Shown here one piece after another: positions 3,024 through 9,960 of a stretch of 64,000 nucleotides of DNA. The number at the start of each line of letters is the position of its first letter. Positions within the stretch are counted from its first letter, which is position 1. The position numbers were made by a program, and so were the translations under genes. This DNA comes from Escherichia phage GEP101: sequence record PQ036202. One strand, 5' to 3'. The notes below the pieces were generated by a model. It did not search any database. It was not told where the DNA came from and saw only the letters and a program-made list of their open reading frames with translations.

Positions 3024-3353
3024 TTAATCTGCCAGCCTTAAATTAAAATTAACACCAAATTTTTCGCATACCTCCAACATATACTCAAGGGATACATTAC
3101 CAGTGAGGTGGATTATGTTGGATACACGAGCCTGAGAGATACCGCAAATTTTAGCAACTTGCTCTTGAGAAAGACCTCTGGATTTAATCTCTCTCTTAAA
3201 ACGATGTGCAACGAAATCTCTCATTTCGTCTACATCCATTGGACAAATATAACTCTCCATTTCAGCCTCTCTGTCAGCCTCCCAATCATCTTGTGGAGCA
3301 TAGGGGTCAAAAACCTCATTCATCTTTCTTCTTCCGTTTTCGTGAAGTGTCAA
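3024..3353 (-). CDS. HTH (XRE-like) DNA-binding protein
   Basis: C-terminal helix-turn-helix LSQEQVAKICGISQARVSNI. Confidence 0.55.
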   Translation of the reverse strand: MTLHENGRRKMNEVFDPYAPQDDWEADREAEMESYICPMDVDEMRDFVAHRFKREIKSRGLSQEQVAKICGISQARVSNIIHLTGNVSLEYMLEVCEKFGVNFNLRLAD

Positions 3354-3528
3354 TCAATGAATCTATGTTTGTAGCCCTAACCTTTTCACGTTCATCATTA
3401 AGATAATCATCAAGAGCCTTCTCAATCTGTGAATCATCTTGACAGATGACTGTAAAGACTGTAAAGCCGTCTGTATCATCAATTATCTTACCATAACCGC
3501 TTCTGGGATGTAACTTTTTAAGAGCCAT
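3316..3528 (-). CDS. hypothetical small protein
   Basis: 70-aa ORF overlapping neighbour start. Confidence 0.35.
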   Translation of the reverse strand: MALKKLHPRSGYGKIIDDTDGFTVFTVICQDDSQIEKALDDYLNDEREKVRATNIDSLIDTSRKRKKKDE

Positions 3529-3529
3529 A

Positions 3530-3913
3530 TCAAATACCTGTGCAGCTTCTGTTTTCTAAGAAATACTCAACACCATACATAGCTTTTTGCATCAAATCTT
3601 CTTTAAACTGGATACGATGATTGAGCATAGCCTGTACATCAATATCCTCATGGTGCTTCTCTTTAATGTTTGCAGATTGCAGGAAATACTCTGCAAGAAC
3701 ACGATACTGATAGTCAGTTACTTTATCAGTCATCTCTGTTAAAGACTCTTCAGAGATTGGTTTAAGTAACTCACCATTAGCCAGAGCAACACCTTTAACA
3801 ATCTGACAAGTATCTTCTGGAACACCTGATAAGTCCACATTCGGGAGTTCTGTTGCATTGACTGGTAAATTCATTGCCATAACCATTGCAGCAGCTAATA
3901 AAATCTTTTTCAT
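3530..3913 (-). CDS. secreted/periplasmic protein (hypothetical)
   Basis: Signal-peptide-like N-terminus MKKILLAAAMVMAMNLPVNA. Confidence 0.5.
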   Translation of the reverse strand: MKKILLAAAMVMAMNLPVNATELPNVDLSGVPEDTCQIVKGVALANGELLKPISEESLTEMTDKVTDYQYRVLAEYFLQSANIKEKHHEDIDVQAMLNHRIQFKEDLMQKAMYGVEYFLENRSCTGI

Positions 3914-4215: not shown

Positions 4216-5316
4216 TTATTCATAATCTCGTATAACTAACCCAACAGGGAACTGTAAAGAACCTTTACGAGTCATCTTCTGGAACTGAACCGTCAAAGGT
4301 TTCCCGATAAACTCTTCAGGATGTTCAGCAAGATACTGTTTCTTCTCATGAGTAGTCTTCCATGAGACATCTACAAAGACGTTAGGAAGAGTCTCTACAA
4401 CGAACTTGCCATGACCACGTTTATCGGTCTTTACACCAGTCACTTTAAACTCTTCAGTGTGCATCTTCTTGTGCTTAATCAAGAAGTATGAACGGTGACA
4501 ACACTCATAGAAGGAGTCTTCAGAGATTGAACGGTACATTGCACCTTCAAACTGAGCTTCAACCCACTTATCATGGGCTTCATCAAACTCTTCCCAAGAA
4601 TTTACACGACGAGACTTAACAGGAACAACTTTACAGCCATCTCTGAAGTCATTCAATGGTGAAGTCTCAATAATGTCTCTACGCTCAGGCCACGTCTTAG
4701 TACTGTCACAAATATCGTACCAGTAGAACTGGAGTAGATGTCGGTCTGGATTGTCAGCATTCTTAATCATAGACACAATATCTTCTAAGTCCCAACCATG
4801 AGCATAAATCTCACCATCAAAGTCTTCGACTTGTGGATGCAATTTAAGCAACAAAAGCAAATCTGGGATTAGTTCTGCTGGGACGTTGTAAATAGTATTC
4901 TCACGAGAATAAGCCGTGAAGCTAACTAAATCAGCATCTCTTGAAATTCTACAACGAACACCATCAAGTTTCGGTTGAGCATCAGCAGGGAACTTCAAAT
5001 ACTTTGCATGACTAACCTTTGCAGCATCATGAGCAAGCTGCACACCTACCTTCTCAGTATTCTGTGCAGACTCTTTTGTGTAAGCATAACCTTTGCGTTC
5101 AACTTGCTTTTTATACTTAGCAGCAACTTCAAAGAGAGCTTGCTGTTCAGCGTTACGCTCATTCTTTTTACCGATGTTTTTAGGTTCTGCTGTATACTCT
5201 TCAAACATCATCTTGCCATTTTCTTTACCGTAGGTTGTAATAACTTTGTCACCTACAGCAACGCATGACCAGACGTTAAAAGAGCCGTCTTTATTTTGTT
5301 TGTACAGTATTGTCAT
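4216..5316 (-). CDS. ATP-dependent DNA ligase
   Basis: Adenylation motif I KLDGVR (PKLDGVRC); 366 aa. Confidence 0.8.
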   Translation of the reverse strand: MTILYKQNKDGSFNVWSCVAVGDKVITTYGKENGKMMFEEYTAEPKNIGKKNERNAEQQALFEVAAKYKKQVERKGYAYTKESAQNTEKVGVQLAHDAAKVSHAKYLKFPADAQPKLDGVRCRISRDADLVSFTAYSRENTIYNVPAELIPDLLLLLKLHPQVEDFDGEIYAHGWDLEDIVSMIKNADNPDRHLLQFYWYDICDSTKTWPERRDIIETSPLNDFRDGCKVVPVKSRRVNSWEEFDEAHDKWVEAQFEGAMYRSISEDSFYECCHRSYFLIKHKKMHTEEFKVTGVKTDKRGHGKFVVETLPNVFVDVSWKTTHEKKQYLAEHPEEFIGKPLTVQFQKMTRKGSLQFPVGLVIRDYE

Positions 5317-6422: not shown

Positions 6423-6956
6423 TCAAGATAGTTTTGCAAACTCTCCGTGGAGTTTAATAGCAGCTTCACAGTAAGCTTTATGGGCTTCTTCTGGTGTGTC
6501 ATGATAACCTAAAAACATCTTCTTACCTTTATAACTTATCTGTGCGACCCACTTACCAGACTTCTTCTTAAGACTTACACCCTTGTACCCAGATTTATTG
6601 GTGACTGGTTTACCTTTATTCCAAGCACTTTGAAAGTCATCTGCTTCCCTTAAGTTTACAATCCTGTTGTCAAGTGAGTCTCCGTTGATATGGTCAATGA
6701 TACCTTTTGGCATCTTGCCATACACGTAAAGCCATGCGAGTCTGTGTGCTTTATGTGCTTTCTTGTCAAAATAGATACTAACCTGTTTATGACCACTTGA
6801 ATCAGTCTGGATATTACCTGCCACCTTTCCTGCATAATTACTGTTAAAAACACTAACAGCTCTTGATTTACCTTCTCTACGAAGCCAAGTAAAGACCCCT
6901 GTTTCGGGGTCATAGTGCAGCAGCTCCTTTAAACGTTTTTGTAAAATTAAATCCAT
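6423..6956 (-). CDS. HNH homing endonuclease with AP2-like DNA-binding domain
   Basis: HNH motif IDHINGDSLDNRIVNLR; AP2-like segment GYKGVS...KWVAQISYKGKKMFLGYHDTPEEAHKAY; starts 3 nt after DNA polymerase stop. Confidence 0.75.
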   Translation of the reverse strand: MDLILQKRLKELLHYDPETGVFTWLRREGKSRAVSVFNSNYAGKVAGNIQTDSSGHKQVSIYFDKKAHKAHRLAWLYVYGKMPKGIIDHINGDSLDNRIVNLREADDFQSAWNKGKPVTNKSGYKGVSLKKKSGKWVAQISYKGKKMFLGYHDTPEEAHKAYCEAAIKLHGEFAKLS

Positions 6957-6959
6957 TAA

Positions 6960-7519
6960 TCAATGTACCTCATACCAGCTCTTACCAACCTTTGCTGTAC
7001 CAGTTACAAGTGTTTCTTTCCTCAAACCTAAGTTTTTTGAAGCTTGTCCATACATCCAGTCAGCAATTGCTTTCATATCATGTGTCATACCCTCTGGACA
7101 TTCCCAACTATTTTCATCGTGATATGCCAGAAGTAACCTTGCTCCGATAGCTGGTTTTCGAGCATTCAGTTTTGTCAGGCCATCTTCACAGGCTTTTCTT
7201 GCTGCTAGGTTGATGGCCTCATTCTGAATCTGTGCTTCCGAACTCATCAGGAGGTAGTTCAGTAGTTTATGTGGAGATTTGCACCATATCCATGCTCCAG
7301 CGACCCTGATATAACCACCTTTAGCAATTGAAGAGTTCTTCCCAAAAACCTCTTCCAGAGCCTTTTTAGACACCTTAAAATCAGCTTCTAAGCTATCAAG
7401 TAACTTCTTAATCTTTGGCAAACGCATATAGTAAGTTTGTTTAGTCAATGCACCTTCTTCCGTAGATGATGCCTTGATAGTTTTTGCAAACTTCTCATCG
7501 CCAGCCCCGAACAATACAT
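6960..7519 (-). CDS. DNA polymerase I (family A), exon 2
   Basis: Encodes ...VLFGAGDEK (end of motif B) and motif C YHDE; first in-frame codon after proposed 3' splice site at 7519. Confidence 0.75.
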
Positions 7520-7790
7520 CTGGTCAATACACTCGCAAGGTGTACCAGTTCTCTTATGAACTTCTCCGCATTTCTACGGAGTGTCGGACTATATCACGTA
7601 GCAGTGATGCTACCGTTGCACTTGGGGATGGCCATTAGCTTACCACCCTACTCTACTCAGTTCATACATTAAGTATGCTTTTCGATAGTCTCTGAACGTT
7701 CCTCTTAAGAGGCTTCGCTGCTGATTACCATATCTTTCCAGACTTAGGCTTCCAGCAATTCACAACGTTTTACATGCGCCACTGACGCAT
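7520..7790 (-). mobile_element. group I intron (ORF-less, 271 nt) in DNA polymerase gene
   Basis: Interrupts motif B between ...KNGIY and VLFGAGDEK; exon ends in U, intron ends in G; P1 pairing U|AUGCG with CGCAUG; consensus-like P/Q/R/S elements AAUUGCUGGAAG, AAUCAGCAGC, GUUCAGAGACUA, GAUAUAGUCC. Confidence 0.75.
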
Positions 7791-9960
7791 AAATGCCATT
7801 TTTGGCTTTCTTACGACCTTTTGTAATCTCGTGAAGAAGCTCCTCATCCTGCGTCTCCCTACAACGAACAATATCATCTTCCTTGTTTAGACCAAAGTAA
7901 ATACTATTCAGTGTATGTGCATCAGTACCTGTGTAGACTTCGTAGAGGTCATTCTCAGCATCATAACGAAGATACTTATCAGTTTCTGGATTGAGGTACT
8001 TATCGAGATGCTTGCAATAGTATCTTCCATCCTCTTGCTTGGTAAATTCTACTGACTCTTTACCTTCAGTTACCGCTTTGGTGAAGTCTTTATCACCCAT
8101 AAAGTTACACAGTAAAACAAGCTGTGCAGAGTTCTGGTCAACTGAAACGATATTAGTCCCTTCCTCGCAAATCCACACCTCCCTCATAGGTGCTCCATAG
8201 ACAGCAGCACCAGACGGTACGTTTACAATACCATATTGTGTCATACGTCCAGTTGAAGTACCAAATACCATTGCACCGGCACTAAGGCGACCATCAGGGC
8301 GAATCTGGTTCAACCAACCTTTTTCATCATCCTTTGAGTTCTCAATAGTTCTACGTCGGTGCATCAAAGTGTAGTATTTCGCAATCTTCTGTCCAAGCTC
8401 ACCTTCAATCGTATCATAAGATGATTCAGTAAGTTTTGGTGAAGTACGGATTAAGCAAGGCTCAAGCAAATCTGTGTACTTCTTCACAGACCAGTTATGC
8501 TCAATGTACTGGACACCTTCATGTTCAACATAACTCAAACCACACCGTTCCACCATCTCATCCCACTTAGGATGCTTTGTAATCATCTTTTTGTTGTCTT
8601 TGAAACGACAAACTTTGACAGGACGACCGTCAGAGTCTTTCTTGTAGTTCCAGTCATCTGGAATCCAACCAACTGATTTCAAGTAGTCTTTAACAACTGC
8701 TACCTGAGTCATACGAGAAACTTCGAACTCAATTGGTGTATATGGTGCATCAATCAAACCTGTGTAGCGACTTGACTCAAGCTCAAAGTGGTTAACGACA
8801 TGGCTGTTATAGTACTTCACAGTTTTAACTGTTTTTACTGGCTTCCAGTCTTTGCACTTCTTACCAATCTTTGCATTCAACTCATTGCAAATTGCACGAG
8901 CATCCTTCATTGCTACAAAACCTTCCTTGTACTCTTCACCAGTTACAGAGTTGGTTGGTGTATAGCAATTCCGCTTTTCAATGTTAAAAATCTTTGTAGT
9001 TGGCTTACCAAATGGCTTGATTTCATATGTCTGCATCTCACCGTTACGTACCTGTTGACGATACTTTGTCTTAGGGTACTTGGTAATTCTTTTCAGTCCA
9101 TCTGCATGACCAAATGCTTCAACATACTCATTCCAAGCTTTTGCAAACTCTTCTCCAGTGACTTTACCTTTGGTCTTAATAGTTGGAGGAAGATGTGGTT
9201 CAACTTCTGAAGCAAGCTCATTAGTCAACTTGTCAAGTTCCTTTACATGAAACTCCATAAGCTCTTTATCAGCTTTCCAACCATTGATAGCCTGTTGACT
9301 CATCCAGAAAGATGTTTCTTTAGCTCGCATGTAAGTCTCATAAGTGTCTATACCACACTTCTTAAGCTTGAGATACTCGTTATCAAGTGCCCGTTTAGTT
9401 TTGGCGTTGATACGGATATCTTCCACAACACGAGTGAAGATTTCTGCATTCCACACACCCCAATGTTCAATCTCTGGTTTACGGACACCAACACGAGCAC
9501 CCCATGCTGCCAAGCCATGAGCACCTTTATAGCCCTTTGGAGTTGGTCTATCCATCCACTGAACACGAGACTGGATAAGAGAATCCTGAAAGAAATTACT
9601 CCACGGCTTACACTTTGGATTATCAAAGTTCCACAAATCAGGTGCAATGTGGTTGAAAACCCACCAGTCATAACCGAGACCGTTATGGATGCAAAGACGT
9701 TTTGCCTTTAACGCAAACTCAACACCTTCACGCAAACCACCCTTAATGTACTTGGTGTACTTGTGACCGAGGATAGGCTCATCTGTAAAGACCCATACAG
9801 GTGGCTCTTCATCGTCAGATTTATAGTCTGCGAAAGCCATGACGTGTACTTTAGTGAACTCAAGGAGTAAACCATCAGTTTCTGTATCACCAACTAAGTG
9901 TAAGTTTTTAAAATCTACGTTTTCCATTTCTACTCCCTCTAAATCATTAACCACATACAT
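7791..9960 (-). CDS. DNA polymerase I (family A) with 3'-5' exonuclease domain, exon 1
   Basis: Exo I motif DTETDG near N-terminus; motif B start RKKAKNGIY at exon end; track ORF 7744..9960 is read-through into intron. Confidence 0.8.

Follow-up and report, generated by a model that had tools for sequence, protein, structure and literature searches.

The region described here lies on the minus strand of the window (i.e. the whole 64-kb stretch of DNA that was analyzed) and consists of a family A DNA polymerase gene in two parts, an intervening sequence, and a gene for a homing endonuclease. The upstream part of the polymerase gene, exon 1, occupies 7785..9960 (minus strand) according to the list of open reading frames (ORFs) and to intron-less alleles, which align up to 7785. 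Its longest ORF starts at 9960, with the start used in the annotation of relatives 11 codons downstream (MENVDF), and its last base, U7785, is the first base of a split Leu codon. When left unspliced, this frame reads as a 738-aa ORF (7744-9960, minus strand) ending in RKKAKNGIYASVAHVKRCELLEA before the stop codon. Exon 2 (6960..7516, minus strand) begins UA UUG UUC, runs to the stop codon at 6962-6960, and encodes the remainder of motif B together with motif C. The mechanical ORF list contains it as a TTG-initiated 184-aa ORF at 6960-7514 (minus strand), beginning MFGAGDEK. Directly after exon 2, as the initial annotation had reported, follows a gene for an HNH endonuclease (6423..6956, minus strand), whose start codon follows the stop of the polymerase after 3 nt and is 561 nt away from the 3′ splice site, within co-conversion distance. 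This free-standing gene encodes 177 aa with an HNH_3 domain (PF13392, residues 69-104, 9.3e-15) and an AP2 domain (PF00847, residues 122-171, 2.7e-12). Further along the same strand, after a run of small ORFs, a 366-aa ORF is located at 4216-5316, where relatives annotate a DNA ligase.

A total of 258 phage records match the 3.6 kb around the intron, nearly all of them belonging to Felixounavirus (Felix O1-like myoviruses) and comprising phages of Escherichia, Salmonella, Shigella and Citrobacter. The best match of this region is Salmonella phage SPJ41, at 98.2% identity. Judged from these matches, the window is Felixounavirus (Felix O1-like) DNA. Two records labeled 'Campylobacter phage A132/A126' (MG065664 and MG065668) are 96% identical to the felixounavirus polymerase–intron–HNH region over 3.6 kb, which suggests that they are mislabeled or contaminated. 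At the other end of the window, about 22 tRNA genes above the Rfam threshold are clustered at 59230-63794 (plus strand), as is typical of Felix O1-like genomes. One long-arm tRNA in this cluster (61701-61789) has a weak tRNA-Sec score (36.9 bits against a threshold of 47) and is probably a type II tRNA.

The sequence between the two polymerase ORFs was recognized as a group I intron by Rfam at default settings. The RF00028 model (group I intron) matches 7847..7564 of the minus strand with 62.1 bits (E 2.4e-13), over its whole length and above its curated gathering score of 50 bits; this covariance-model search had been named as a check in the initial annotation, and it bears out the minus-strand group I intron called there. 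A sensitive Rfam pass over the 64 kb returned RF00028 as the sole non-tRNA family at or above its gathering score, and no second group I intron in the window, even at relaxed thresholds. In minimum-free-energy calculations, the region did not fold significantly better than shuffled sequence (z = -1.58). This weak folding energy is expected because the ribozyme is pseudoknotted, and the case is thus carried by the covariance model and the comparison with relatives. No ORF is present inside the 268 nt, as had been claimed. We estimate a probability of roughly 93% that 7517-7784 (minus strand) is an ORF-less, 268-nt phage group I intron of IA2 type in a Felixounavirus family A DNA polymerase gene. 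The core of the initial call, an ORF-less intron breaking motif B of the polymerase, was therefore right, while its borders required correction.

These borders follow from comparison with intron-less alleles, another check that had been proposed beforehand. In 26 intron-less felixounavirus alleles (bumzen, TP1, skuden and 23 others), the polymerase is a single continuous ORF that is exactly 268 nt shorter and has A-L-L at the site. Phage bumzen, for instance, reads AAT GGC ATC TAC GCC CTG TTA TTT GGA GCC GGA GAC GAG AAG (encoding NGIYALLFGAGDEK) in a single ORF, and between common anchors the window is longer by exactly 268 nt. Because the intron-less relatives are shorter by this length and encode GIYALLFGAGDEK, the intron is placed at 7517..7784 (minus strand), with exon 1 ending at U7785 and with G7517 as the terminal (omega) G. 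It begins CAGUGGCGCAUG and ends GACCAGAUG, its borders being GCG U|CAGUG at the 5′ side and CCAGAUG|UAUUG at the 3′ side. The predicted junction in DNA is ATTTATGCGT|TATTGTTCGGG, and the spliced message would read GGC AUU UAU GCG U|UA UUG UUC GGG. This register was chosen since it is the only one that combines the 268-nt difference with a U at -1, a terminal G and the conserved Ala-Leu-Leu. Because the Rfam alignment assigns the P1 and P2 of the model, at low confidence, to exon sequence, the 5′ end was set by the comparative evidence and not by the Rfam model.

In this register, a P1 hairpin (7773..7791, minus strand) pairs the exon sequence UAUGCGU (7791-7785) with the guide GCGCAUG (7779-7773) over 7 bp, with U7785·G7779 as the splice-site wobble pair. 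The P1 loop, CAGUG (7784-7780), serves as the P10 guide and pairs over 5 bp with UAUUG, the first five bases of exon 2 (7512..7516). The initial annotation had instead proposed an intron of 271 nt at 7520-7790, spliced after U7791 and G7520 to give GIY|VLFGAGDEK. Its P1 helix (AUGCG with CGCAU) holds, and its error at the splice site can be traced to this helix: P1 has a U·G pair at both ends, and the outer one (U7791·G7773) was taken where the inner pair is the splice site. This moved the 5′ site by 6 nt and the 3′ site by 3 nt. G7520 is indeed a G and the resulting junction is in frame, yet all 26 intron-less relatives examined are shorter by 268 nt and encode GIYALLFGAG. Joining 7791 to 7519, which had been thought to restore a contiguous motif B, gives GIYVLFGAG, with one residue missing between the equivalents of T7 Y526 and Y530, and so breaks an otherwise gapless alignment to T7 DNA polymerase. 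The exon also pairs poorly beyond U7791, where the next position is a U-U mismatch, compared with the 7-bp exon–guide pairing and 5-bp P10 of the 268-nt form. On the grounds of the length difference, the lost residue and the gap opened against T7, the 271-nt junction was rejected, and we consider it extremely unlikely that this version is spliced. An exact look-up of the spliced polymerase of phage Meda, with either the 268-nt or the 271-nt junction, found neither sequence in the collection searched.

Within these borders, the intron contains a complete set of helices from P1 to P10; the core helices P3–P8 could all be located and are fully paired, and the P, Q, R and S consensus elements are present. 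The four elements, which the initial annotation had also listed, are found at their expected positions in the window sequence (minus strand): P is AAUUGCUGGAAG (7760-7749), Q is AAUCAGCAGC (7726-7717), R is GUUCAGAGACUA (7697-7686) and S is GAUAUAGUCC (7595-7586). According to the Rfam alignment and our helix map, P3 is formed by 7767-7761 and 7620-7614, P4 by 7757-7752 and 7724-7719, P5 by 7749-7747 and 7729-7727, P5a by 7743-7740 and 7735-7732, and P8 by 7613-7608 and 7603-7598 (all minus strand). P6 is short and is followed by a minimal P6a hairpin, CCUC-UUAA-GAGG (7701..7712, minus strand). P7 (7690-7685 and 7592-7587, minus strand) encloses P7.1 (7677-7663), P7.2 (7648-7643 and 7631-7626), the 3′ strand of P3, and P8. 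Downstream on the minus strand follow P9 (7581-7575 and 7570-7564), which is closed by a GAAA loop, and two peripheral helices, P9.1 (7562-7558 and 7551-7547) and P9.2 (7546-7540 and 7532-7526). The presence of P7.1 and P7.2 between P7 and the 3′ strand of P3 is a mark of subgroup IA, and by resemblance of layout the fold looks like subgroup IA2. These two helices lie within an insert of about 65 nt that the Rfam alignment leaves unmodeled.

The same insert occurs in the closest relative of the window intron that was found outside the felixounaviruses, i.e. an intron of phage vB_EcoP-ZQ2, which is 71% identical and scores 91.8 bits with RF00028. Between the two introns, 45 of 46 core pairs are kept, including 13 double changes (three in P3, one each in P5, P5a and P6, five in P8 and two in P9), as counted by a script comparing pairs in helices assigned by hand rather than in a fitted alignment. 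A 311-nt variant of the intron in phage Tf (RF00028, 62.9 bits) adds two more compensatory changes, in P6a and P8. A MAFFT alignment of the introns of the window, Meda, Tf, ZQ2 and two from a Vibrio phage misaligned the variable helices and was not used for pair counting. As for these distant relatives themselves, ZQ2 is a podophage (Gamaleyavirus) in which the intron (460-703) splits a gene annotated as 'RNA polymerase' and is followed by a 214-aa 'hypothetical' ORF; its record annotates no intron. Vibrio phage 11895-B1 has two group I introns of 82-84 bits (2403-2682 and 3326-3577) in and around its large terminase gene, one inside an annotated two-piece join and the other before the annotated start, beside an 'endonuclease' ORF.

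At the protein level, the spliced product aligns without gaps to R518-G533 of T7 DNA polymerase (gRKKAKNGIYALLFGAGDEKF vs tRDNAKTFIYGFLYGAGDEKI). In family A polymerases, the O-helix (motif B) residues R518, K522, Y526 and Y530 of T7 are the established counterparts of R754, K758, F762 and Y766 of E. coli Pol I. From the gapless alignment and this residue correspondence, the insertion is a phase 1 interruption of a Leu codon between two conserved O-helix aromatics, at the equivalent of T7 F528 and of E. coli Pol I L764.

Since SPO1, phage polymerase genes have been known to harbor group I introns. For phage family A polymerases, three insertion sites have been listed: 674 (SPO1, SP82, Bastille and Pf-WMP3), 676 (phiL7) and 881 (PhiI and W31) (PMC3428280), and multi-intron polymerases have been described in Bastillevirinae (PMC11878797). 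Compared with the former list, the L764-equivalent site inside the O-helix is a fourth. All introns in the family A polymerase comparison have been assigned to subgroup IA2 (PMC3428280; PMC11878797). Those of PhiI and W31 resemble the window intron in residing in the family A DNA polymerase gene of an enteric phage and in having an IA2-type fold, and they and the Pf-WMP3 intron carry their ORF in P6a, the same place as the ORF of felixounavirus sister alleles (PMC3428280). They differ in that they are inserted at E. coli position 881 rather than at the 764 equivalent in motif B, in that their ORF is of the HNH type where the felixounavirus sister alleles have an Endonuclease_7 (PF02945) ORF and the window copy has none, and in that their splicing has been shown experimentally, whereas the window intron is known from sequence. 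The introns of SPO1, SP82, Bastille, Pf-WMP3 (674) and phiL7 (676) are likewise self-splicing group I introns in conserved finger-domain sequence (PMC3428280; PMC11878797), self-splicing being predicted for the window intron. These lie about 90 residues upstream of the window site, carry nicking HNH endonucleases inside the intron and, unlike the window intron, occur in phages of Gram-positive bacteria, cyanobacteria or Xanthomonas.

The splicing pathway can be inferred from this structure. In the pre-mRNA, the internal guide CAGUG-GCGCAUG would pair with the end of exon 1 (UAUGCGU, forming P1) and with the start of exon 2 (UAUUG, forming P10). An external guanosine would then attack after U7785, and the freed exon 1 would in turn attack after G7517. 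The joined exons (GGC AUU UAU GCG U|UA UUG UUC) would encode GIYALLFGAGDEK within a contiguous polymerase of about 900 aa. From unspliced RNA, translation of the polymerase would end 14 codons into the intron, at the in-frame UAA 7746-7744, and not directly after GIY as the initial annotation had it. This product would be truncated, with no motif C and only half of motif B, so splicing would be needed for phage replication.

Most GenBank records of these phages annotate two separate 'DNA polymerase' CDSs, although the record of phage Meda gives a joined CDS. This annotation implies that no splicing occurs and that the polymerase is assembled from two polypeptides (738 aa and 184 aa), a reading that is in line with the many records listing 'DNA polymerase (x2)' and with the TTG-initiated ORF in the mechanical ORF list. 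The break, however, would fall inside the O-helix, and the sequence upstream of the TTG at 7514 contains no Shine-Dalgarno sequence. Intron-less relatives, moreover, have one continuous protein across the site, and the intervening 268 nt form a high-scoring group I ribozyme with pairing kept by compensatory change. Two assembling polypeptides hence seem barely conceivable, and the truncated unspliced product and the missing Shine-Dalgarno sequence make the two-CDS annotation an artefact. Decay into a non-splicing or protein-dependent remnant, tolerated by the phage through some other route, is also very unlikely for this ribozyme. Such decay would agree with the loss of the homing endonuclease ORF and with an Rfam score of 62 bits, compared with 82-92 for the ZQ2 and Vibrio phage introns, but this lower score is mainly due to the P1/P2 of the model and the large P7.1/P7.2 insert. 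All core helices are intact, dozens of felixounavirus records that were deposited independently share the intron at 96-99.6% conservation, and the polymerase gene is presumably essential.

Introns of at least 90% identity are present in about 96 GenBank felixounavirus records, many of which list a bacterial host, which we take to mean that they represent cultured phages. The junction reads TATGCGT|TATTG in all ten intron-bearing alleles examined. Empty sites occur in several forms, i.e. TATGCAC|TGCTG (TP1 type), TACGCCC|TGTTA (bumzen type) and TATGCGT|T(A/G)CTG. In alleles with otherwise TP1-like flanks (PMBT20 and EC6), intron-linked differences are confined to the P1 and P10 pairing partners at positions -2, -1, +2 and +3. 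This pattern would be expected if the flanks arrive with the intron and are needed for splicing.

The alleles of these phages can be arranged in five states. Besides the empty site, there is an intron of about 800 nt with an extended 12-bp P6a stem (UCUCUGUUAGGA/UCCUAACAGAGA) that encloses a 160-aa Endonuclease_7 family ORF (PF02945, 1.1e-19) together with a Shine-Dalgarno sequence. This endonuclease VII-type ORF is inserted in the P6a loop, between positions corresponding to 7708 and 7705 of the window. Phage VpaE1 has the same intron with the ORF split into pieces of 101 aa and 52 aa, apparently a decaying homing endonuclease gene. In Tf and GEC_vB_NS7, the intron measures 311 nt and retains the long stem and the last ORF codons, which looks like the result of a deletion between two CCTAA repeats. 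The 268-nt form of the window, with its minimal P6a, completes the series and is either ancestral or the product of a further deletion. Together, these states fit the usual life cycle of a homing endonuclease, which passes from invasion through decay to loss. The window intron, which cannot move alone, is a minimal version; in sister phages, the same element has an endonuclease VII-type ORF. As cited in PMC11878797, a study from 2000 described a full-length, ORF-bearing intron and several shortened forms in one phage population, as is seen here; according to that citation, the host gene, the phage group and the endonuclease differed from those of the felixounavirus case.

The adjacency of the HNH gene and the intron holds as initially described, and the link between them that this seemed to imply does not. 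In a comparison of the window with 35 relatives, 17 of the 26 loci without an intron carry an HNH gene in the same slot and nine do not, which rules out strict linkage of the gene to the intron and indicates a separate, free-standing homing endonuclease gene. Phage bumzen, for example, has an empty intron site yet carries an HNH gene 99% identical to that of the window. In the same comparison, ORF-less introns are accompanied by an HNH gene in all three cases, while introns with an endonuclease VII-type ORF have one in two cases and lack it in five. Counting the ORF-less introns that were fetched (the window and loci L003, L010 and L038), all four are HNH-bearing. The trend is also visible in a spread sample of 59 GenBank records, out of about 258 felixounavirus records known. 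Here, with classes assigned by coverage pattern, an HNH gene accompanies about 13 of 13 ORF-less introns vs three of nine ORF-bearing ones, with a Fisher probability of 0.0011 that is uncorrected for shared ancestry. This association is suggestive; it is compatible with trans or collaborative homing, and equally with simple linkage. The slot behind the polymerase stop is shared by four families of HNH_3 + AP2 genes whose proteins are only 40-50% identical to one another, which marks it as a hot spot for free-standing homing endonuclease genes. ORF-less introns are found with three of the four families, and some of the HNH genes (e.g. in skuden and Tf) overlap the end of the polymerase gene.

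Traces of recombination were sought by comparing 6957-8200 of the window (minus strand) with the 35 related loci (L001-L035). The 3′ third of the polymerase gene is mosaic: in 60-nt bins, identity is 52-90% between about -420 nt and the stop codon, and 92-100% upstream of this stretch. No sharp recombination boundary was found at the insertion site in this comparison, as the mosaic zone starts about 420 nt upstream of it. Compared with bumzen, the window differs at -8, -5, -2, -1, +2, +5, +8, +11, +14, +17 and +20, with the next difference only at +96; from +2 to +20, these are synonymous changes at every third base. Either co-conversion or recoding for resistance to a nuclease could account for this patch.

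By analogy with known systems, the HNH-AP2 gene may move the intron in trans by co-conversion. The T4 nrdB intron with the free-standing HNH endonuclease MobE (trans homing; PMC2790892) likewise combines an endonuclease-less intron with a nearby free-standing gene, and the psbA intron of cyanophage S-PM2 with F-CphI (collaborative homing; PMC2790892, PMC6083498) has the same arrangement as the window. F-CphI uses an Endo VII-type motif, whereas in felixounaviruses the Endo VII-type gene is the intronic one. In contrast to both pairs, most relatives with an empty intron site carry an HNH gene in this slot, so protection against the HNH endonuclease does not require the intron. A trans-homing unit, in which the HNH endonuclease cuts sensitive polymerase alleles near motif B and the ORF-less intron is spread by co-conversion, is a tentative proposal that we rate as unlikely. 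If it were true, the endonuclease VII-type gene of the intron would be dispensable and hence repeatedly lost, the synonymous changes clustered at the empty site in phages that carry an HNH gene would be an immunity allele, and the 3′ region of the polymerase gene would be an arena in which two unrelated nucleases compete over a highly conserved site.

In the literature searched, no description of the intron, of its junction or of the allele series was found. The paper on SPJ41, the 98%-identical phage, lists "two introns" among the non-coding RNAs without detail (PMC9951933); the second of these either lies outside the window or is not of group I. Felix O1 itself has been reported without introns (PMC3185647), and in a comparative-genomics study, the intronic endonuclease is interpreted as an enzyme of repair or integration (PMC8300805). 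The element is of a well-known phage kind and leaves the current understanding of group I introns unchanged. Its exact junction permits correct annotation of the polymerase as a single CDS in the approximately 96 intron-bearing records. Furthermore, the felixounaviruses include coliphages and Salmonella phages that are easy to grow and in which the allele series occurs naturally, each state being possible with or without a free-standing HNH gene, which makes them convenient material for studying the homing-endonuclease life cycle and trans homing.
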